DNA of 46,483 nucleotides from Dimargaris cristalligena. Taxonomy: Eukaryota. The position numbers and the translations under genes were made by a program. The stretch spans positions 1 to 46,483 of the forward strand of contig ML002294.1 of assembly GCA_003614675.1 (NCBI GenBank). The letters run 5' to 3'. The notes under the pieces were generated by a model. That model searched no databases. It was not told the origin of the DNA and was given only the letters and a program-made list of their open reading frames with translations. Shown here piece after piece: positions 1 through 46,483 of the stretch (the first letter of the stretch is position 1; every line of letters starts with the position of its first letter).

Positions 1-772
1 TTTGATGAATAATTGGTTTTACAGGATGAATTGATAGAGTATGATTCAAGGAGCTGTGCTTTACGTTGATAAATGGGTTCTAATTAGTAAAGGAATCAGG
101 TAATTAAATATACTTCCAGTTACCTGCACTCTGCAGCACCACAGAATCACGCTGGTTGATTTGCTGATCAACACCATCTGCCCCAGTGTTCGTAGTGATC
201 ATTTAGGATGAATGTGATACGATCCCCATAAGACATTATACACCCCTCCCCAGGAATGCAGTACTGTTAGGAATCTACTAATCTATTTACCAATACGGTG
301 GTCTATCACCATGCACCAAAGTGAATTGTGTTTAGAGAGCAAATGGGGGCTGGTAATCCCTAATCGCTCGATGTCCAAGTGTAAGTCAATGCAAATCCCA
401 TATCTATAACAGTATCAATTGATCTGTACATTTTGAACCTTTAAACGGCCTGATTCGCAATCATTTACAAGTCTTGCCACATCCTAGTTTTTTTAAACAC
501 ATGCCCTTCCGTGATTAGTAATAGGTGTGGATTATCATAATCGTGCATCTACACATATGGCATCTATATGTCAACATAATTTAATCGACATATTAGGAAA
601 ATTTCGCTTCTCCTTTTTTAGTATAATTCACCTTATATTCATTGGTTATAGATTCCGTACTATTATTGTAATAAGCAAAGAAGGAAAGGAGGGTAGGGGA
701 TATAGAGCAACGGACAATAGGGTGCTAGATTAAACCAGACATGTAACCCACAGGCACCGTAGTAGGTTCTGA

Positions 773-22698: not shown

Positions 22699-23489
22699 CC
22701 CTTTGGGAAAAACCTATGCAAAATATAGGGAAAAGTAAAGCTGTACCGTTACCAGTATTTCTTAAACTTGCACTGCGTTACCTACAGTTCGCCCAATATA
22801 CGTGACAATTTCCTATCGAGTAACCTGGCTTAATTCAGTCATTCTAATACCCATGTGGTCCCATTTTCTTTACACACCACCCCTTAGCAATCCCATTGAA
22901 ATGTACCTTTTTATACTTGCACTCTCTCACATCTATACGTCTATTAAAAATAACTAATTAATTGGCTAAATTGGAATATTTATGTGGCAATGGCAGTGCC
23001 CTTTAGCCCCCCAATTAATTTTGGTGGGAGTATACATGGCTTTGTTTATACTATTATTTTATACCACCTACCACTTCTCAAATAAGACGGGTGGGAATCA
23101 GCAAGGCTATATATACGACTTAGAATGAAGCGTAAGCCGAAAAATAGGTTAAACCAGACGGGTTTTTAGTTTTACACTATATCTGAAGCTGTTTTTATTT
23201 GCCGGTAGACTAAGTGCCGCCAGGGAGATTTTCACCAATAACGTTATTAAGCGACTCAAACTAGAACGGGTAATCACTGGTAGGGGCGGGGTAATGGATA
23301 ACATAGTATAAATCCTATTGTATATTTGTGGACGGTGAATGTTATCAGAGAAATAACCATTCCAAATACCAAATAGATTAGAAAGCAGAGATGTGCATCC
23401 AATGGCTGCGTTATTGGCTAGGAATTCAACAGGCATAACTTTACAATAAATAATACCGCAAGGATATTGATACACACATGTTCAGCTGG

Positions 23490-25640
23490 TTATTTCACAT
23501 GAAGACCAGGCAAGCCCACCGCTATTGCCAAAACAGATAGCGGCAATCTAATGGATTAGAAATTATAGTATAAAGACCCATATGTGTCGCTAAATTATAT
23601 TTAAATCAATAAGTTAAAAAAAAACGCCAACAGATTGCGTGGAATATTTGTAGTTACCAACATACAATTTAACAAGACTGATCGAAAGGCCAATCGACCT
23701 AGAAAATACCCCAAATACCTCTCTGACCGTCATGCACAGTCAAACTTAATATATTAGATGGTGTAGCCGTTTCGGCTAGCTAATCCAATATTTTCTATAG
23801 ATATCAAACAAAGAATTTTGTATACAGCCCCTTATTTTTCCGTAACGCCATGATGGCATTATCATAAATACGGAAAAATCCGGACCAAGGGCTTTATTAC
23901 CAGCCTTTAGCCGGTGCTGAAATTTAAGTATGGTTATTTCTAGTAACTTAACATTTTTCACCTAAATGACATTTCCAATATATAAAATGACTTCCTGCTG
24001 TCGAAATCAGTTATGTATCACTAAAAGATATTGCACTTATAATTTATTAAAATTACATTTAACCTACTCTTTAGCAGGCACCACGGAGATCAGGATCACT
24101 CGGTGGCTATAATATTGCCGGTCCGGTCTGCCCCGGTGAGGGTGGACTTCCGGTCGAATGCTGGGTAATCCCTCTAAATAAAGTGAGGATTCCCAGTTGC
24201 ATCCTGGTTGGGGTGACTGAAAGGTATAGTTTCCTGCATTGTTGCAGGGGGAGACCTGTATGTCTTTAGATAGGCAGCCGGTGAAAGGATGAGAATAGGC
24301 CCTAGTGAAGCCATAGAAAAAGGGGGAGATGGAATAGGACACATGTATGTAAAAAAGCTGGATGAATAAAGGTTCATAACGATGGGGTGAAAGGTAGAAC
24401 TCATAATCGTTTGATGTGATTTTTTAAGGAGGGCCTCCACCAAGGTATTTATACCCGATACAACTAATGGGCAGGGCAACTGGGCGTAGTATAGGACAAC
24501 CCACTAGCCTTTCCAATGATGTCCATTTGATAGGTCTATTCCATACCCCCATTAGGGGAACAATATGCTTATTCATGATTTGTACTTGGAATGGGATAAG
24601 GGCTGGTTACCATACCAGAGTGTCCCCTTTGTCGCCTATTCAACGAGAATCGTGAATGGCTACTACCATTGTATATGCGTTATAATGGCCGCTTAGCTAG
24701 GGTTCGACACAATACACCGGGGAAGTCTGAATCCACACCTTGCGAAATCAGCTCTCGGGTTGGGGCCAGAACCAATGCTCTTGTCCGGAGGCTTCTACGA
24801 TATTTGACGTTTATAATGGCAATACAGCAAAACACCCAGTAATTCTGGATTTGTTTTTATATAAAGGTGATCAGACCCGCTGTGACGGTTAGGCCCTGCT
24901 AAATGGCTTACTTATGGATAATACGACCCTGATGGTCATTTAAATGCACTAACAATGGGCCCAGCGAGTCCCTGTCAGATTGGTTTATCTATTAATTCGA
25001 TAGTCCCGGTCCAGGAATGGTACAGCCAGCACCAATTACCATGGCCTTAATAGGAAGGACAAAGCCTACCAACGTTTAGTGATGTACCAAAGCCATAGAT
25101 GGATCGGTAATCCCTGGCAACCATGCAAATACAAATGTAATAGGTACTATACTTTCAATTGTTAGTATTGTGACTCGTCATCCGTATGTATCGAGCAAGG
25201 GAATGGTACATTCGAATGGTGCGTAGTACAGTAGCTGTGCCTTACATCTATGAATTTAATGGTATGTTAGTGTTCCAGAGAAATCTTCGCACTAGCATTG
25301 TTCCCGTGACCCTTCATAGTAACTATGTCGCTGCCTGGCCACCGTTATATGTTGGTAGGCTTCTTTGGTTGGGCAGAAGGCTTCCCCCCTATGATATTCC
25401 ACAACTTGGCTAACTTGTTAGACAGTGGAGTATTTACGTTAACACTGGTTGAATAATGGACAGGTCTTCTTCAGAAAATGATTGGCATTTAGTGGTGTAA
25501 CATGACATGAAAATTAAGGCCGTTTTGGACTAATCGGGTCTAAATCCCCAGGCTGGCGTTGTTAGCGACCGTAACCCCGAAAGACATTCCAGACCATGAC
25601 TGCCTCTAACATCCATTCACCTACTAACCTATTAGACTGG
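23490..25640. repeat. Copy 1 of a diverged ~2 kb dispersed repeat unit
   Basis: Colinear with about 26930-28560 and 39590-42350. Shared anchors include aaacaaagaatttt, gcattatcataa, ttattaaaattacatttaacctac, ttattcatgatttgtact, taagggctggttaccatacca and ctaacatc.attcacctacta. Boundaries are approximate. Confidence 0.85.
24096..24314 (-). pseudogene. 72-codon microprotein ORF, copy 1, with a premature TAG at codon 47
   Basis: MASLGPILILSPAAYLKTYRSPPATMQETIPFSHPNQDATGNPHFI*RDYPAFDRKSTLTGADRTGNIIATE*. TAG at 24174-24176 aligns with CAG in copy 3 and CTG in copy 2. Same 219-nt span as the other two copies. Confidence 0.5.
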
Positions 25641-26929
25641 TATAATTATATGTCATGAATATAATTGTAGAACCCTTTTAATAACATATATCCAACGTAT
25701 GTGGTGGTATGGTATACCAATTACTATTCCATGGATGTCAGAACTCCCTTTACATCCATCAATGACGGTATATTCTTATATCACTCTTTTGACCTGGGAC
25801 CTAAAAATCCTACTGTCTGTGATCGAAAAAAAACTACTACTTAGTCACCTTTCAAACAGTCGAATTAAATATTGTATGGGATTGCGACCTCGACCCATGT
25901 ATTATTTCATTGGTGCCTCCTCTTCTATTTGTACACACTGTTTTTTACTGTCCTTATTAGGATTCGGCACCGGGAACAGGCAGCTGTACTTTATGGTCCT
26001 GTGTACCAAACAATTAACCTTTGCACTGCAATGCCATTCATATTAAATTATTAGTAAAAAACCACGGCCATAACGAACTAAAATGGCAGGCAGTCTATGT
26101 TACGCAATCGACCCACCCCAAAACTACGGACCAAGGCAATTGTTATGACTCCTCCCCATGGTACCCGCAATTGTGTTCGACAGATACATCACTACGTAGA
26201 CCAGATATTCTATTAATTGGGGGCTACTTGTAGTCAAGGGGTGATGTAAATATCTAATAGGAAACACCTAAATACGAAGTACTAACTGACCGTAGGTGTT
26301 TAGATGGAGGTGTAGATATTATACCATGTCTGACAACACCCGGGGGAGTCAATCGGCGCTAATATGTATATGGGCCTGTTATATCAGAAGGGTTCTATCA
26401 AAGCAGTATATAACGATAGAGCGTTTAGTAATCCGATTAGGTTATCCAGCACACGCTAGTCTCCGGAGCCACTGGATATGGCTGTAACTATCCAAAACCA
26501 GGACTGCTTTCAGCACCCTTTGTTGCGGAGTATCTTGGGTATTATTGCCAAATCTACTACTCGCTGTATACTAAGCATTTATTAATATACGTAGGCTCTT
26601 GGTTTATTACCATAGAAATTGTCGCAAGTAACAAATTTAATATGATATTTATCCGTGAATAATAGCTTATGTTGAAAGTTACTAGATAAATTACTGATAG
26701 TTGAATTTCCAAAGTACTACTTATATATAGTAAATAGTTGTTCTTAACTATAAATAAAAGAATATCGCAAATCCAAAATCATTATTATGTAATCAATGGC
26801 TTTGTACAAGGATCAAGTAACGAGTTAGGTGTTAATAAGATATCTAGTGAAATCTTTATATATTTCAATACATAGTATAACTATATATTGTGATTATGTA
26901 TTACCGTCAAGTCTGTAGGAAATGCTCAG

Positions 26930-28560
26930 TAAGTGGATGCGTGGGGGTTTTTCGGGAATGAACACCTGGGTTCGTTGTGCAAGAAAAAACCAACATTCAA
27001 TCCCGACAGAACCAATAATACCATCCTGGATAGCATATATAATTGACCCAGTATTTTAACGGTATTTATAACCACTTAAGCCCACTAAGTCAGTAGTTTC
27101 CATCGAAATATACAAAGGACTCCATCCACAACCCTTACTTTATTCATACCACCACGGTGACATTATCATAACTAAGGAAATATCCAAATCAATTACTTCA
27201 TCACTGGTCTTTTTCCTATGACCGATTCTAATCATACCTATGGCTATAAACTTAACATTTATTTTCAAAACGACAACCACTGTATAAAAGTTCCATCCCG
27301 CTGTCGAATTCAATTATGTAGCGAAAAAAAATATTTTATTAAAAATACATTTAACCTACACTTCGGCAGGCACCACCGAGGTTTAGATCACTCGGTGGCT
27401 GTATTTTCACCACCCATGTCCGTCTCAAAGAGGGGATAGTTAGGTTTGTGGACGGGGTAATCCTTCAGGATGAAGGAGTAATACCCCGATGCACCCTGGT
27501 TGGGGCGACTGAAAGAAGTTGCTAACTGCATCAGTAAAGGTGACGACATGGGTGTCCTTAAATGGACGGCCAACAGAAGGGTGGTGCAAGGCCTTAATCT
27601 GGCCATAGAGAAGAGCGGAGGGGGGAGGCGGAGAGTGAAGGGGAAATAAGAGGTTTTATGCCGATAGATAAAATGTGGGATAGAGAATGGTGAATGGATA
27701 TTCCAGCATGATTTTACTTTTGGGGGAGTGATTCAACCAGCCATTTATACTGCAATCCATTGACACCGGAATCGTCTTGGTGTGGTATACAGTGACCAAC
27801 CAAACCTTAATAGGATGCTTTATTAATATGGGTGAACTTCAACCCAACTGTATAAGATTTTACACAATATGTGTATGGGATAATATGTGGGAGAATAATT
27901 TTTGACCAGTAATATTTACCTTGTCAAATGGATTATTCGTTATACAGCCTGGATGAACTTCTGCCATATGGATATTTCATTGATTTACTGGAGGGACAAT
28001 ATGTTTATTCATGATTTGTACTGGAAATGGGATAAGGGCTGGTTACCATACCAGAGTGTCCCCTTTGTCGCCTATTCAATGGATTCATGAATGACTGCTA
28101 TCATTGCATATGCATTATAATGGCTGCTTAGCTATGGTTGGGCCCAATAAACGGGCGAAATCTGAAGCCACGTCCTGTATCATCTATTCTTGGGTTAGGG
28201 CCATGGCCAGAACTCCTGACCGGGGGCTGTTACGAAATTTGGCGTTTACGACGACAATGCAGCAAAACACTCAAGATTGCTAGGCCTACTTTTACACGGA
28301 GTTGATCTGGTCGGCAGTGACAGCTAGACCCTGATAAAGAACTGGCGGTGTGGGTTATTTGGGGAAGTGGCGCCCCGCCAGTCACCACAGTGTACGACCA
28401 ACTGGTCCAGCCAAACCCTGCCAGAGTGGCTTACCTACCGAACAAACGGCTATAGACTAACCTTATAGTCGAAGCTGGAGGATTCTGTGTCACTGGGAAG
28501 AGCAGCACCACCTAGCCTTCGGTAGTGAATTATAACCATAGACACACCCGGGATCGCTGA
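26930..28560. repeat. Copy 2 (most diverged) of the ~2 kb repeat unit
   Basis: Shares the anchors cattatcataa (about 27160), aatacatttaacctac (about 27345), the near-identical block 27996-28079 and gcaaaacac (about 28262) with copies 1 and 3, in the same orientation. Boundaries are approximate. Confidence 0.8.
27388..27606 (-). CDS. Hypothetical 72-aa microprotein, copy 2 (intact)
   Basis: MARLRPCTTLLLAVHLRTPMSSPLLMQLATSFSRPNQGASGYYSFILKDYPVHKPNYPLFETDMGGENTATE*. TATAAAT about 143 nt upstream of the ATG, AATAAA about 48 nt after the stop, and gap-free alignment to copies 1 and 3. Confidence 0.5.
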   Translation of the reverse strand: MARLRPCTTLLLAVHLRTPMSSPLLMQLATSFSRPNQGASGYYSFILKDYPVHKPNYPLFETDMGGENTATE

Positions 28561-38619: not shown

Positions 38620-39559
38620 GGCTAAGGATGTGGGTGGGTTGAGGTAAAAGGGAATCTCCACCAATGAGGGATTATATACAGTGGCGAATGGTCCCTAAGG
38701 GTAATAAGTAGTAAGAAACCAGAAGAAAAAATAGAAAGTTAATAATGTAGCCAAGACGAAGGAGTGTGAGGAAGGTAATCGATAGGAAAGACGGCGTCCA
38801 TGAATGTTGGTGAATGCGAGGACTGGTAGTTGGAAAAAGAAATAGTGTATTTATATAGATATAGATATATTTATCGGACTGCACGCGTTCAGGGGGCATT
38901 AAGGGAGCGGAGTACTAAGGGGAGTCGACGGAGTGTGAAATGATCCAGCTCTCATTTTTGGGGGGTTTTCTAAGGGGGAGGAGGGGACCGCAATTTGTCA
39001 CCAGTATTACTCGATATGAAATGAACTAGGTTTAAGCTTACACTAATTTAACGGTGTTGCCGTCGGTTATACGAGGTGCCAACGACGAACAAGTCATCAA
39101 TACACCCTCCACGACTGGATGTGTGGTCCAACCAATTTGGTTTGATTTGGATGAAAATCAGCACAACTGCGTATAGCTTGGAAAGAAATGGGAATAATAC
39201 TAATGTCGGTGGGATTTTTTTGGACCAGTCAAGTCAGTTTAATCGCAACTGGATTTTTCAGTATACAGCAGATCGGAACCTATCCCACGTTGGAAGGCAA
39301 AGGTCCATCACTGATGAAAATTATACGTTAACATGATCAGGCAACATCTATCCGAAAAAGTAGCCCCCAATAAGAGGTGGACTATAACCAACGGTTTATA
39401 TGCCCAGCCATATACCAGTTGCTAGTGGAAAATATTAGATAGTAAATTCTGCCAATTATATTTTCAGGATACATTAGAAATCAGAGAGGTACATCCACAG
39501 GTCGCACTATTTACAATAGATTCATTAGCCAAACTATTTCAATAAAGAATGAAACGGGG

Positions 39560-39581
39560 TATATATATATATATATATATA
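39560..39581. repeat. (TA)11 microsatellite at the left edge of repeat copy 3
   Basis: Perfect dinucleotide run read directly. Confidence 0.95.
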
Positions 39582-40202
39582 CATTTACAATCAGCTATAT
39601 CACAGCAATACTAAGTAAGCACACGGCCTTTGGCAAATTAGATAGCGGGAATCCCAATCAATTGGAATACCAGCTATAAATAGAGCTATACGTGTTGCTA
39701 ATCTAAAATTAAATGAAGTCGGAAAGAAAACACTGATAAGCTAATGTGTGGACTATTTGCAGTTTCCGGCATCTAATTCATTAAAACTGTCTGAAGGTGC
39801 AATCAATCTAGACAATATAAAAAATATATCTAGCTGGCATACCGACTAAGTCTGGGTATTTCAGATGTTAGTATAACCGTTTCATCAAGCCAGTCCAGTA
39901 TTTCTTATTGAAACCAAACAAAGAATTTTATCCAAACCCCCCACTTTATCCATATCGCCACAGCGGCATTATCATAAAAGTTGAAAAACCCTAACCAACA
40001 GCTTTATCGCTGGTCTTTAACCAAAGTCAATTTCGAGCCATTTTTATACCTACCAACTTAGAATTTATCTCCTAAACGACATTTCCGTTTCATAAAATGA
40101 TTTCCCATCGAAATCAATTAGGAATCATTAAACGATATTGCACTGATAATTTATTAAAATTACATTTAACCTACTCTTTAGCAGGCACCACGGAGATTTG
40201 GG

Positions 40203-40421
40203 TCACTCAGTGGCTGTAATATTGCCAGTCTGGCCCGCTCCGGTGAGGGTGGTCTTCCGGTAAAATGCTGGGTAATTCCTCTGAATAAAGGGAGGATTCC
40301 CAGTTGCACCCTGGCTGGGGTAACTATATTGTTTAAGGTCCTGCATTGTTTTAGGGGACGGCCTGTATTCATTAATACAGGCTGTCAAATTATTTAGGGA
40401 AATGGCCCTAGGTTTGGCCAT
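40203..40421 (-). CDS. Hypothetical 72-aa microprotein, copy 3 (intact ORF)
   Basis: MAKPRAISLNNLTACINEYRPSPKTMQDLKQYSYPSQGATGNPPFIQRNYPAFYRKTTLTGAGQTGNITATE*. 39/72 identical to copy 1 by hand count. The TATA position is altered to TATATTAG; AATAAA at 40150-40155. Confidence 0.45.
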   Translation of the reverse strand: MAKPRAISLNNLTACINEYRPSPKTMQDLKQYSYPSQGATGNPPFIQRNYPAFYRKTTLTGAGQTGNITATE

Positions 40422-41072
40422 TTGAATAGTGAGTAAGCACACTAAATCAATGTAAGGCAGATATAGAAAAAATACATTGAAAGTTTGAAGTAGTGTGGGG
40501 TCGCATTGAACTCATAATCATTGTATGAAATTTTTTAAGGAGGGCCTCCATCAAGGCTAATATACCCAATACAGCCAATGGGTAAGTCAGCCATGTGGGG
40601 CAGAAGATGCCCCATCAAACCTCCCAATGCTGTCCATTTGATAGACCTATTCCATACTGCCACTAGGGGAACAATATGTTTATTCATGATTTGTACTCGG
40701 AATATAATAAGGGCTGGTTACCATACCAAGGTGCTCCCTTTGTTGCCTCTTCAATGCAATTCATGAATGACTACTGCTATTATATATGCATTATAATGGC
40801 TGCTTAGCTATAGTTTGACACAATACACTGGGGAAGTCTGAAGCCACACCTTGCAGCATCCATTCTTGGTTTAGGGCCAGGACCAACTCTTGTCTGGAGG
40901 CTTCTACAAAATCTAATATCCACAATGATAATACAGAAAAATATGCCCTGTAAATCTGGGTCTATTTTCACATGAGGGTGAGATCAGACCTGCTGTGATG
41001 GGTAGGCCTTGCTAAATGACTTGTTTATGGATAATACAACCCTAATGGTCATTTAAATACACTAATAATGGG

Positions 41073-41660
41073 TGTTGGCCCTCCTAATCCTACCTAAATC
41101 TAGACTTAATAATTGACCATCCCTATTTAGCTTTATCACACCATATTAACCCTCCCATAGTCACCCCTGGTACTATAGGACCACCATCTATTATATAACC
41201 CTCCTCCAACTGGGCCCCCAACACTTCACGCAAAACACTTAGCCAGCTAATCCAAATGACTCTTCCAGTTCCTATAAGAGTCTTCCAGGTACCTAGCTAT
41301 CCAGCCAGACTCTTTGCCTACCTATACCTAGTTTTAGTAGTATTCCCCTTAGGACTTCCTGTTGAAGTTGTCCCTGTACATATATAACTGGGCCCCACTG
41401 GGACCAGTTGGTTTCCTTAGCTTATTCTTACCCCCTGTAGTTTACCCTAATAAACTCTATATACACTTATCCCTCATACTAACTAGTAAATGTGCCCACT
41501 GTATGTCCCTTACATAAACTGATTACTTAAAGCCTTTATTAGTTAGTACTGTGCCCACCCTAATACTAGTAGCCCTCTTGGCTGAGTCTAAGCCCCACCT
41601 ACTATAAGAAGCCTATCCTCGGGACTCTTGATAGACTAAGAGTAGTTAACCCAGATAATA
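41073..41660 (+). mobile_element. Solo LTR of an LTR retrotransposon (588 bp) with 5-bp TSD ATGGG
   Basis: Absent from the homologous site in copy 1 (actaacaATGGGcccagcgag at about 24956). Flanked by ATGGG at 41068-41072 and 41661-41665. Begins TGTTG and ends TAATA (CAACA after two C->T changes). Internal TATATAA at about 41381 and AATAAA at about 41449. A second copy starts at 46114. Orientation is inferred from the TATA/polyA order. Confidence 0.85.
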
Positions 41661-43146
41661 ATGGGCCAGTGAATCCTTATCCTATTGGTTTACCTAGCAA
41701 TCCAATAGTTGTAGTTAGGTCATGGTATAGCAAACACCACTTGCTGTAGCCCTATTAAGAAGGGCAAAGCTTCTTGACCTATGGTGATGCACTATAATCA
41801 TAGATGAACTAAGAGTCCCTGATAACTATAATAGTACAAGAGGGATAAATATTATACTTTCAACTGCTAGTGTTATAATTTGGCACCTATTAGTATCAGA
41901 CAAGGGAATAGTAAATCTGAATGGTGAATAGTACAATAGCTGTGCCATGCTTTCATGAATTTCAAATTATGCTAGTATTCTGAGACAGTCTTACTGGCAT
42001 TATTAGCATGTCTTGCCAGAATAGTGCTACATCTTCTGGATTGTAGGTAAGTAATGGTGATATTATTAAGTCAGATAGGTGCCATCCCACAGTTATTATT
42101 CAATTGCTTTGTTGGTACCTTCTCCCCCACTGGGATGCCTACAAGAAAACTTTTAGAGTAACAGGCGGGCCTTTACCAGATAATAGCCAAGATCCAAAAG
42201 TAAGATGGTGCATGTTGAGATGAAAGCCAATATGTAATAGTCTGGGCTAACTTCTCGGGCTGTTACTGTTAGCAACCATAATCCCAAAGGACATTCCCAG
42301 TTATGGGTGCAGCTAACATCTATTCACCTACTAGGCTTTTAGACAACTGGCCTAGTTCTACACCCAATTGCCATCATTGTCATTTTATAATTGCCTATAC
42401 CACATTTGGAATGGAAGTCATGCATAATGACTACTTCAAGACTAGCTAGCTAGACCCTCAATCACTGGTCATATTATAGCATAAAATACACACTTACTTA
42501 AGCAGATGTAATAATGGGGTGGGGGTAGTGCTAGCCGCCTACTGAATCTACCTATTAATAGTGAGCATGTGTTGTGATATGGTAAACCTAGTGCTGTTCC
42601 ATGAGGGTCAGAACTCGCCATTCTTTCACCAATACCTGCCTATTCTTAAATCAAACCTCTGAGCGGGAGTCTACTATCTTTCTGGTCAGAAATAGGCTCT
42701 TATTGATTCTTCTTTCAAACTGTTGAATAACAAAACATTACATAGTGGTGATCACAAGCCAATACCTATATTATTGGAGGCCTCCCACCTCTTGGTCTAG
42801 TTGAGTACGATTTGGCCCGACTCTAAGAATTTACATAATATGCACACGGAGAAGTAGGCAGGAGACTAACTATAAGCCAGTAGTGCTTACCTCTTTCATC
42901 GTTTTTTTGTCGTACAGTCTAGTTGAACCTCTCCTATATGGTTTTACCTATGCTCGTGTAGTGCTCTAATCTATGATGGCTGAGGATAGTATGGTAGAAC
43001 GAATGAAAAATGTCACCAGGAGTACTTTATTGGTATATGAAATATGTTACCATTTAGTTAAATCATAAATAAGTTGGTCGTGGGCTAGCAGCAATATAAA
43101 AGATTTAGCCGAAAGCCTATATTATTATGTGTCATCAGTTTATTGT

Positions 43147-43924
43147 TTAAGCCAACTCAATTAGCCGCCTAAGCCCCAGTAGCCACTTGCCCTCGGTTTC
43201 GACATAGTGTTGCATAAGGGGGAGGAACAGTCTGCTGGCTTCGTCGTTCTTACCAGCCTCCAGCGCTAATTTGATGGAATAATAACAATAATAAACACAG
43301 CACGCATTAGTAAGGGGTATATAATAACGAGTGGGTACCATTTAAGTACGAACGAAATGCACGAACTGAGCCATAAAAAGATGGGGTGGTTGAGGCCTTA
43401 GACCTAACAACAACCCCGATTCTGGGGGAGGGGAAGGGTTATGATTGGGAAAGTGAGGGGGGAATTCGTTTAGAGACGGGTGGGGGGAACTTACCTGTTA
43501 CAATGTTAGTTAGCTCTAACAGAACCGGCTGGGCGACTTGGTCTTCCTTCAAACGGGCGAAAAGCAGGTCCATTTTCTTTGTGGCGTCCTCAAGCTTACG
43601 TTTATCCATACCCTGCAGCTCTTTGGCCCGGAGGGTTTGGAGCAGCCGCTCGATACTGGCCTGAGCATCCTCTTTGGCAATGGGGGTCACTTCTTCAGGC
43701 TCAAGGGCTGCTGCTGCGGCCTTAGCATTACCCTTGGCCTTAGTCTCAGCGGTGGTTGGGGGCGAGTCTTCGTTGGTGGTGGTTTTCTTGGGGTCTTTGG
43801 GGGGAGCTCCGGCTTTGGGCGGCTGGGGCTTGAAAATGGCCTTGGGGGGATCGTTCCAATGGCCCTTGGCGGCGTGATGATCACCACGGAAGTCGGTGTA
43901 TTTCGGTAAGTCGGTGACGGTCAT
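43147..43924 (-). CDS. SRA1 (steroid receptor RNA activator protein)/Sec31-C-terminal-like protein, about 182 aa, 2 exons
   Basis: Exons 43924-43495 and 43265-43147 join in frame (G|CG). N-terminal GHWNDPP motif and a C-terminal helical domain (KRKLEDATKKMDLLFARL...GKWLLGLRRLIELA) match the SRA1/Sec31 family as I recall it. Confidence 0.8.
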
Positions 43925-44811
43925 GCTGAAAATAAAGAGGGGGACGTAACGAAATGCAACAATCAGGTAAAACTAGCCGCTAAGGTAGTGGGCCTAACCA
44001 ATGGGAAACAAAAGCGTACAAGGGGTGTGAGGGAAAGAATAAAAACTATAAATAGAGACGTAAAAAAGGTTTGCAGTGGACAAGCTGAGTTATAATATAA
44101 GCAGTTTGGTGGAAAAGTTATTAAGACAACTAGGTCTGAAGGTATAGAAAATTATTGGAGGGAAAGGGAGGGAGGGAGGCGAGGCGACCGAAACCTTTAG
44201 ATGTCTCAGACCAGGTCGCGCTGCACCTGCTCTTTATTCACTTTAATTAATAGTGGTCGCCTTTTGGTCAGGGACATGGCGTGGGCCCCGCCGTCAAGGC
44301 GTGCGGGCGAAGCAAGAGCAAACGGCGTCCAAATTAAGAGCCAACGTGAATCGGCGAATGTTTAGAGTCTTGAAGCAGTAGGGATGTGCAGTAAGTTTGC
44401 TGAGTTCTGTGAATTCACAATATGCCCTTCGCCAATGCAAAATATCAGCAGGCATTTGTTGACAAATATGCTTATATTGATTGACGACCTGGCCGCATTG
44501 GAACATCCCGTTTGCCATAAAGCGGGAGTCTGTTATTGAACCCAACATGGAAACCCTCTCCTAACAGCTGCAACCTCGGCCCTAATTGTCATTCAAGCAC
44601 CATTTATTCTCCTGAAATGATGGATCGGCTAGGGTGATTAGGAGGGGCACTGATTTTATACTAGATGTTCGACACACTTGACGATACCGAGACCCCCTAC
44701 TTCCCTCTCTGGTGGAGGGGGATTCCTGTCATATCGTCCATCGCACTTTATTCAGTAAGGATATTATACAGTTAGTTAGGTAAACTATTCATCTAAAGCC
44801 ACGAGAATTAA

Positions 44812-45636
44812 TCAAAATTCGTCGGATCTAGCCTCGGCTGAAGGCTGATCCAAATCCAGCACCGGGGGTCGTCGGCTGGCTGGAAATTCGCTCACTTGGA
44901 GCTGGGATTGATAGCAGGCATTCTCCACCTTGAGCAGACTATCCCGCATAACCTGGACCTTCTTGGTCATTTGCGGGTGGAGACGGGGGTTAAATTCCAC
45001 AAAGGCACTGTAGAGCTGCTGGAAAAATACTCCGACGGCGTTGGCTTCATCGGCATTACCACAGGCCAGGGAGTTAATGGCATATCGCATCAGTTCCCCC
45101 GCCACGTCCGACACCCCCAGTACGTAGTCAATGGGGCCCACCGGTATATGCACGACTGGGTGCTGGGTTTCGACAGCGCCCTGCTCGGAAGCGGGGGCGG
45201 GAACGGTATCCACTCGAGTATGATTTTCCTTGCCCTGACTTTGGGCTTTCGAAAATTCGTTAAGTCTGGACTCGACCTCGGCCAAGGTAATCAGCCGTTG
45301 TTCGGCCAGGAAAACCCACAGGGCCAGCGCCTCAATATACTCCTGGAGGCCACCAGTAAAAGTGGAACCATACCGCCACCGGTTGGAACCCTGTAGTTCG
45401 GGGGCGATTTGAGCCACCGCCCGGAGAATATCGGCGTGTTTGCGCTCGGCCTCCTGGAAAATGGCAGCGCGATTGGTGGGGCTAACCCGGAGCAAATGGA
45501 AAATGAGTTTCTTGCTTTGCTGGGTAATGTCCCGGGACAGCTTGTTGATACGCTCCCGGCAGTCCTGGTGAGCGTCCATAGAATCCCGAATTCGAGTAAA
45601 CAGTTCGGGGGCAAGACCCACGGCTTTGGTGGTCAT
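44812..45636 (-). CDS. TSNAX: Translin-associated factor X (TRAX, C3PO subunit), about 274 aa, single exon
   Basis: HQDCRERINKLSRDITQQSKKLIFHLLR, GLQEYIEAL, DYVLGVSDVAGELMRYAIN, KKVQVMRDSLLKVENACY. The QExxEA and DxxGE acidic residues are TRAX-type rather than translin-type. ATG at 45636. Confidence 0.88.
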   Translation of the reverse strand: MTTKAVGLAPELFTRIRDSMDAHQDCRERINKLSRDITQQSKKLIFHLLRVSPTNRAAIFQEAERKHADILRAVAQIAPELQGSNRWRYGSTFTGGLQEYIEALALWVFLAEQRLITLAEVESRLNEFSKAQSQGKENHTRVDTVPAPASEQGAVETQHPVVHIPVGPIDYVLGVSDVAGELMRYAINSLACGNADEANAVGVFFQQLYSAFVEFNPRLHPQMTKKVQVMRDSLLKVENACYQSQLQVSEFPASRRPPVLDLDQPSAEARSDEF

Positions 45637-46113
45637 GGCACTTGGGAGGGTGGAAAGCTGAGAATGGCAAAGTGAGGTTAGGTGGAACAAAAAACTAATG
45701 TGGAGGGGAAGAAGACTGATCGTTGGAAATACACTGGAAGGCAGGTGGGTACTATTCCCTTTACCACAAAGGTGCCACAAACTGCTTAACCGACCACACT
45801 AGTAGGATCCAGAAAATATCCCATAGGTGGGTCCCTTTTTTATTTAGGTAAACAAGCTACAGTCACGGCCAGCAAAAGTGACACCCAGTCTAGGTACAAA
45901 AGAAAATAAAAAATACTTACATTTTAATTTAATGTATCTACTTGTATATAGTACCATTTATAGTAAAAATAATTATATTAGAAAGCCAGTGTAAAAGTAG
46001 AATATTTTTATTTAATACTAGATTAGACTACCCTTAGAATCAAGTATAGCCTGGATTATAATTAGTATGTTCTCAAAATATGGTACTAGGTAGGTAGTAT
46101 TAATAAATTCCCA

Positions 46114-46483
46114 TATAGCCTAGGTTAACTACTCTTAATAAATTAAGAGTCCCAAGGGTAGGCTTCTAAAGGTAGGTGGGGCTTAGGCTTGGCTAAGTGG
46201 GCTGCTAGCATTAGGTACAGGCATGATACTAACTAATAAAGGCTTTAAGTAATCAGTTTATGTAAGGGACATACAGCAGGCACACTTTACAGGTTAGTAT
46301 GAGGGGTGAGCATATATAGAGTTTATTAGGGTAAACTAGGGGGGTAAGAATAAGCTAAGGTGCTAACCGGTCCCCAAGGGGAGCCCAGTTATATATACGC
46401 TGAGGATGCCTCCGAAGGGAGGTCCTGAAGGGGGAACTACATAATGGCTAACAATAAGGTGGACCGGCTGGCCCTCAGTTGAG
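46114..46483 (-). mobile_element. Second copy of the same LTR family, inverted, truncated by the window end
   Basis: Matches the reverse complement of about 41300-41660, including the identical run tactaactaataaaggctttaagtaatcagtttatgtaagggacatacag and tatatagagtttattagggtaaacta. Confidence 0.85.

Follow-up and report, generated by a model that had tools for sequence, protein, structure and literature searches.

DNA methylation in early-diverging fungi is mostly discussed in terms of N6-methyladenine (6mA). In Linderina pennispora (Kickxellomycotina), 5-methylcytosine (5mC) is described as lying almost exclusively in repeats (PMC11258239). Silenced retroelements of mouse (IAP and ETn) and of plants impose their chromatin state on adjoining unique DNA over a limited reach, with buffers or boundaries near genes (PMC3183085; PMC4090718). 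Methylated cytosine decays to thymine, so that old repeats lose C/G and CpG dinucleotides (PMC4090718; PMC13297926; PMC12695648), and repeat-induced point mutation (RIP) introduces C-to-T transitions that are triggered by repeats (PMC13297926). The stretch analysed here, contig ML002294.1 over its 46,483 nucleotides (the window), carries a 583-bp insertion at 41073-41655 which belongs to a very abundant mobile-element family and is a candidate solo long terminal repeat (LTR). CpG dinucleotides are nearly absent from this insert and from about 0.8 kb of DNA on each side of it. The explanation favoured here, with a probability of about 0.65, is that the transposon set off CpG methylation which extended into its flanks, the CpGs being erased afterwards by deamination of 5mC.

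The window shows a mosaic, with genes at a CpG observed/expected (o/e) ratio of ~0.8-1.2 and the element with its flanks at ~0.05, which matches the repeat-restricted CpG 5mC of Phycomyces blakesleeanus and L. pennispora. In those two species the evidence consists of direct methylomes, whereas here it is a mutational footprint only, in a Dimargaritales-like host. Spreading in mouse and plants was followed by bisulfite sequencing or chromatin immunoprecipitation on polymorphic insertions; here, in a fungus, the evidence for it is a set of fixed substitutions seen in comparison with insert-free paralogues. Decay by deamination is usually described for the body of repeats or for whole genomes, whereas at this locus the unique flanks are erased as fully as the repeat and one edge is sharp. 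The likeness to RIP lies in the repeat trigger, the C-to-T transitions and the effect on adjacent unique DNA. In contrast to classical RIP, which prefers CpA and mutates both partners of a duplication, the flanks lose only CpG and an insert-free paralogue (copy 1, below) is spared.

The features of the depleted block are as follows.

41073..41655, + strand: 583-bp insertion, a very high-copy dispersed element and candidate solo LTR, not in copy 1
41063..41072, + strand: left 10-bp direct repeat, perfect, occurring once in copy 1
41656..41665, + strand: right 10-bp direct repeat, a perfect match to 41063..41072
40273..41072, no strand: left CpG-erased flank, single or low copy, with 3 CpG in 800 bp (40359, 40502 and 40698)
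41666..42535, no strand: right CpG-erased flank, single copy, with 2 CpG against 33.0 expected and a graded tail to ~42865

The CpG positions near the insert run 40258, 40359, 40502, 40698, 41229, 41620, 42166, 42256 and 42536. A previous inspection of the letters alone (the sequence-only reading) had noted about three CpGs in 40504-42165, only one of them outside the insert, and the count agrees: base composition predicts 66.5 CpGs and 3 are observed (o/e 0.045), and 40698 is the sole one outside the insert, which is itself CpG-poor (2 CpG, o/e 0.087). In 200-bp bins leading leftward from the insert, the o/e is 0.00, 0.14, 0.10 and 0.13, then 0.95. Rightward, the values are 0.00, 0.00, 0.22, 0.00, 0.35, 0.38, 0.62 and 0.76, so that the ratio is 0.35-0.38 at 800-1200 bp from the insert and at least 0.62 farther out. 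The depleted zone thus extends about 0.8 kb on each side, roughly over 40273-42535, with a sharp left edge near 40260-40360 and a gradual right one. The halo of about 500-570 bp in the sequence-only reading, with CpGs back at ~40500 and ~42165, was therefore too narrow.

An origin that involves no methylation, through locally unusual composition, relaxed constraint, mere chance or an artefact of assembly, could appeal to the gene-poor character of the region (~40% GC) and to its being known from one contig only. Against this, neighbouring intergenic DNA of the same GC content, just outside the block, has a local baseline o/e of 0.62-0.64, and relative to a baseline of 0.64 the Poisson p is 4.9e-6 for the left flank, while the right one, taken as far as 42535, has a p of 1.6e-7. 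All 15 of the 500-bp windows within the block have an o/e of 0.11 or less, while for the 178 low-GC windows of that size elsewhere the median is 0.78 and the 5th percentile 0.41, and the four lowest of them all adjoin the other copy of the element in the window. Of the six longest CpG-free gaps in the 46.5 kb, five fall within 40502-42536. Together with Fisher's test on CpG retention (below), the Poisson values and the window comparison exclude chance as the cause of the depletion. The loss is also limited to CpG, with transition products, and contigs from four sequencing runs match the junctions and flanks exactly, all of which makes an origin free of methylation very improbable.

Self-BLAST showed that the insert lies in one of three copies of a diverged non-coding repeat unit, two of which serve as insert-free controls.

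23373..25637, no strand: copy 1, insert-free reference paralogue with a normal CpG level
27085..28338, no strand: copy 2, partial and insert-free, used as second control and rough outgroup
39469..42344, no strand: copy 3, low-copy non-coding segmental repeat that carries the insertion

The stretch 39469-41072 matches 23373-24959 at 72.6%; beyond the insert, 41656-42004 matches 24950-25302 and 42220-42344 matches 25513-25637. Copy 1 holds 33 CpG at 24400-25450 (o/e 0.645), in agreement with the more than 30 that had been noted there. In the segment common to all three copies, 18 CpGs were counted in copy 1 and 15 in copy 2, against 2 in copy 3. The o/e is 0.54 for copy 2 and 0.04-0.06 for copy 3, compared with the 0.645 of copy 1. 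Equal depletion of the insert-free copies had been named in advance as the outcome that would speak against a link with the insertion, and these counts show the opposite. The erasure is specific to the insert-carrying copy. Distances at non-CpG sites are 0.185 between copies 2 and 1, 0.219 between copies 2 and 3 and 0.149 between copies 1 and 3, which makes copy 2 the most divergent of the three and usable as a rough outgroup. Copy 3 also contains a perfect 24-bp (TA)n microsatellite at 39559-39582 which is missing from copy 1.

The alignment of copies 1 and 3 shows what became of the lost CpGs. None of the 40 copy-1 CpGs aligned without gaps over 40361-42344 is kept in copy 3, where 13 have become TG, 16 CA, 6 TA and 5 something else; the four example pairs of CG changed to TG or CA that the sequence-only reading quoted are all found in this alignment. 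On the left, all 18 aligned CpGs of 40504-41072 are gone, and on the right, 0 of 20 remain in 41666-42344. By comparison, the adjoining and well aligned control zone 40060-40360 keeps 4 of 8 copy-1 CpGs, with a symmetric outcome when the comparison is reversed (4 of 9). Fisher's test on retention gives p=0.0012 for this control zone (4/8) against 40504-41072 plus 41666-42004 (0/28).

Up to 42004 there are 13 TG and 10 CA products in random interleaving (14 runs, against 12.3 +/- 2.3 expected), and the lost CpGs include all 5' and 3' neighbouring bases, a pattern that fits independent deamination on both strands. Outside CpG, C-to-T differences are only mildly asymmetric, with 74 of 334 from copy 1 to copy 3 and 58 of 346 in the reverse direction, and private non-CpG C-to-T changes are similar in copy 3 (13/114) and copy 2 (12/118). 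The erasure is therefore CpG-specific, strand-symmetric, copy-specific and centred on the insert.

The nature of the insert was examined with contigs from four DNA sequencing runs (3 samples, 2 studies), mapped on 40300-42700 at 80% likeness or more. Each run contributes 1203 to 1695 contig pieces that map to this interval. The summed depth climbs from ~1e2 to 1e4-3e5 only at ~41080-41660, and the flanks are at single-copy level, the left one at up to about 4x. Contigs from all four runs span both junctions together with the flanks, with 0 differences from the window. The insert thus belongs to a real and very abundant family of mobile elements, and it lies within unique DNA. Among the 15 joints listed out of 66, none skips the entire insert, although no firm conclusion on insertion polymorphism follows from this.

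CpG decay is also seen across the family. One site at its 3' terminus has TG in 30-32 contigs per run and CA in 22 contigs of run X1, and where the insert keeps its two CpGs the majority of other copies have CA (in run X1, 86% at 41230 and 66% at 41621).

The label of solo LTR, which the sequence-only reading had given to the insert, has features for and against it. A high-copy mobile element with discrete ends is present; it starts with TGT and has TATA-like and AATAAA motifs in one orientation. Its 3' end is not CA, and in the loose ends of 22-32 contigs per run most relatives extend 6-7 bases beyond it, end in ...ACA(G) and are followed by unrelated AT-rich DNA. The flanking repeat could be a target-site duplication of 10 bp, or one of 5 bp together with five matching bases. 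A 10-bp repeat is atypical, and a 5-bp duplication would require the last 5-6 bases ahead of the right repeat to be a decayed LTR end. The window contains no internal region for the element, nor a primer-binding site or polypurine tract. LTR identity is accordingly left in doubt by the missing CA end and the 10-bp repeat, and the label is plausible, if unproven.

No transposon domain of Pfam was found in the 38 ORFs (open reading frames) scanned out of 92 (at least 60 aa, gene-poor parts), where the matches were to ordinary genes (TyrRS, HAD and others), and a further 8 ORFs around 38675-44560 had no domain matches. An exact 24-base pattern of the element gave 0 matches against metagenome contigs.

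A second copy of the element lies at the end of the contig.

46120..46483, - strand: second element copy, cut by the contig end, with 84% identity to 41380-41654, 4 CpG and o/e 0.23
45637..46119, no strand: CpG-poor flank of the second copy, with 3 CpG against 15.2 expected and none in 45867-46119

The two copies have the 3' terminus in common. A CpG-free gap at 45866-46368 (502 bp), the third longest of the window and the only one of the six longest to lie outside 40502-42536, covers the second copy and 253 bp of its flank, and the CpG-poor flank reaches the first ATG of a translin ORF at 45636, within whose coding sequence the density is normal. CpG depletion thus accompanies both element copies in the window (2/2), and the second one is a separate locus pointing the same way, with modest statistics. 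If the depletion at 45637-46119 reflects methylation, a gene of housekeeping type such as translin has tolerated a methylated upstream region. The start of the window (1-500, o/e 0.47) was considered as a third halo and rejected, its CpGs being evenly spread and the sequence having no likeness to the element.

The contig breaks off within this copy of the high-copy element, so the repeat is the probable cause of the assembly break, and a full-length element may lie past it. In run X3, one contig joins the element 3' end to its own 5' end (41648 to 41081, back 568 bases), which suggests a head-to-tail tandem or a nested pair of elements elsewhere in the genome.

The position of the two copies bears on a reversed order of events, in which the element integrated preferentially, for example by means of a chromodomain integrase, into a CpG-poor patch that was already methylated or heterochromatic, the depletion still being the result of 5mC decay. 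Both copies do sit in AT-rich intergenic DNA. However, copies 1 and 2 are undepleted, so the sequence has no intrinsic pull on methylation, and the flanks of the insert are single copy. The depletion is also roughly centred on the insert, with ~0.8 kb per side, and the second halo extends over the 483 bp that precede the first translin ATG, an unlikely place for prior heterochromatin. Integration into an already silenced patch is for these reasons considered improbable.

The completeness of the loss could instead point to a fast process: an active, repeat-triggered hypermutation directed at CpG, similar to RIP, which leaked ~0.8 kb into the unique flanks and took the place of slow decay. The retention of 0 of 40 CpGs would fit such a process, and so would the dominance of transitions among the differences between family members (128 of 169 places in run X1). 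Both element copies are moreover positive on the classical RIP indices, with TpA/ApT of 1.92 and 2.05 and (CpA+TpG)/(ApC+GpT) of 0.74 and 0.85. RIP leakage into adjoining unique DNA is known in Ascomycota, which counts in its favour. RIP is also described as a 5mC-linked mutator (PMC13297926).

The flanks, however, have no CpA-to-TpA signature: TpA/ApT is 0.77 on the left and 1.10 on the right, and the product index (CpA+TpG)/(ApC+GpT) is 1.79 and 1.33, respectively, compared with 1.10 in copy 1, so that the flanks bear the mark of TpG and CpA as products. TG and CA are interleaved with no strand-coordinated tracts, and at the 12 insert sites with a derived T or A relative to the family majority there is no preference for CpA (5 CpA-type, 6 CpT-type). 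RID-dependent RIP is not known from outside Pezizomycotina. For none of 28 CpGs to survive, they must have been lost at least ~10 times as fast as C changed to T at non-CpG sites of this branch (0.114). Such a ~10-fold excess falls within the range of 5mC hypermutability and is thus within reach of passive decay, so a mutational burst is not needed. A RIP-like origin of the halo is consequently regarded as unlikely.

Mutation of both duplicated partners, which is classical for RIP, was not found in the segmental repeat, where copy 1 keeps its 33 CpG and leans to GC; RIP acting on the duplication of copies 1, 2 and 3 itself was rejected, copy 1 being spared. The RIP-positive indices of the element body could stem from the element's own base composition or from C-to-T decay at its non-CpG sites. 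They would also be explained (TpA/ApT ~2) if the erasure were the work of an active CpG-directed mutator, that is, a RIP-like genome defence in Zoopagomycota, outside the Dikarya to which the known systems of this kind belong, an idea to which we give little credence.

For methylation spreading followed by deamination, the proposed course of events would be the following. An element of an abundant family, probably a solo LTR, would have inserted into copy 3 of a diverged local duplication, in a host that silences this family by symmetric CpG methylation. The methylated state would have reached ~0.8 kb, roughly 4-5 nucleosomes, past each end of the element into unique DNA, and spontaneous deamination of 5mC over a long time would have turned nearly all CpGs of the element and its flanks into TpG or CpA, while the unmethylated paralogues would have retained normal CpG turnover. 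Zero survival among 28 CpGs means that methylation, if it was the cause, spanned most of the history of copy 3 since its split from copy 1. We infer 5mC as the cause, its outward spread and the enzymes, which would be of DNMT1 or DNMT5 type, from the pattern of substitutions. Of this explanation as first put forward in the sequence-only reading, the CpG specificity, the TG and CA products, the restriction to one copy and the mobile nature of the insert stand; the size of the halo had to be revised, and the polarity of the changes is supported only partially.

Sites that are CG in both copies 1 and 2 indicate the direction of change most firmly. They number four, and copy 3 reads TG, TG, CA and TA at them, so the firmly polarised losses are few, although complete (4/4).

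Several points weigh against methylation spreading from the element, or at least against reading all of the differences as losses. At 5 sites, copies 2 and 3 have TG or CA in common where copy 1 has CG, and the private changes of copy 1 over 24557-24903 lean to GC (13 T>C or A>G against 6 C>T or G>A), so that some of the apparent losses may be CpG gains in copy 1 or older losses shared by the other two. The direction of the CpG changes is accordingly resolved only in part, and weakly. The flank of the second element copy is AT-rich, with 3.0 CpG expected in its first 200 bp (Poisson p=0.013), and the sample consists of two element copies on one contig. The mapped runs possibly include the source sample of the contig, and their agreement is not independent confirmation of its sequence. 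Lastly, we infer the order of insertion first and methylation second. As an observation on copy 1 itself, the pattern at 24557-24903 could mean CpG gain, GC-biased conversion, or parallel loss in copies 2 and 3.

Among the products of the long ORFs in the window are TFIIF-alpha, a SERCA-type Ca-ATPase, a gamma-tubulin complex protein, lunapark, kinesin and translin. The SERCA ORF is most similar to those of Tieghemiomyces parasiticus (86% identity), Dimargaris verticillata (83%) and Dispira simplex (81%), followed by Basidiobolus (74%). Judged from these protein identities, the host is a fungus of or near Dimargaritales (Kickxellomycotina, Zoopagomycota), in keeping with the early-diverging fungus that had been suspected. 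The CpG o/e of ~0.8-1.2 in the gene bodies means that the depletion is local and not genome-wide, and that methylation, in the explanation proposed here, would be limited to repeats.

Deamination of 5mC and spreading from transposons are already well established, with good descriptions from mouse and Arabidopsis (PMC3183085; PMC4090718), and this locus is a clean example and a lead, not a new mechanism. Among the papers listed for Dimargaris and methylation, no title or abstract opening shown concerned a methylome, and a search found no 5mC report for Kickxellomycotina by name, so that the locus would represent a known process in a lineage for which no earlier description was found. The surprise that the sequence-only reading attached to it is lowered by the repeat-restricted 5mC reported for L. 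pennispora (PMC11258239). The locus provides evidence, from sequence only, for transposon-directed CpG methylation in a Dimargaritales-like fungus, either present today or long maintained in the past, and the insert-free paralogues give an internally controlled measure of the reach of the silenced state (~0.8 kb). This reach stops sharply on the left, beside a conserved block, fades on the right and, at the second copy, ends at a gene start. If the profile holds genome-wide, CpG decay around the family could map historical methylation domains and boundary elements without wet-lab work.

The best-conserved block of the repeat unit is at 40150-40345, with paralogues at 24043-24240 and ~27335-27530, and copies 1 and 3 are 84% identical over 40060-40360. 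Candidate ORFs are present in this block, to the left of the halo, and the sequence-only reading had proposed a microprotein there, with its promoter inside the halo. This proposal found no support: the lengths of the ORFs differ among the copies, the differences between copies 1 and 3 fall evenly on the codon phases in three candidate ORFs (4/6/4, 13/12/10 and 15/17/18, with no periodicity), and the ORFs have no match in Pfam or Rfam. Nor does the halo end before the ORF, as had been stated, since the corrected left edge puts the depleted zone over part of the candidate ORFs. Rfam gave 0 matches for the whole window at the gathering threshold and 0 at E<=1 for 39900-42600 and 23800-25700, and a tRNA scan gave 0. 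An invariant AT-rich stretch lies ahead of the block and a short inverted repeat within it; with no codon periodicity and no Rfam match, the block may correspond to a non-coding RNA that lacks annotation, or to a regulatory element. It is in this block or just past it that the CpG-free zone has its sharp left edge.

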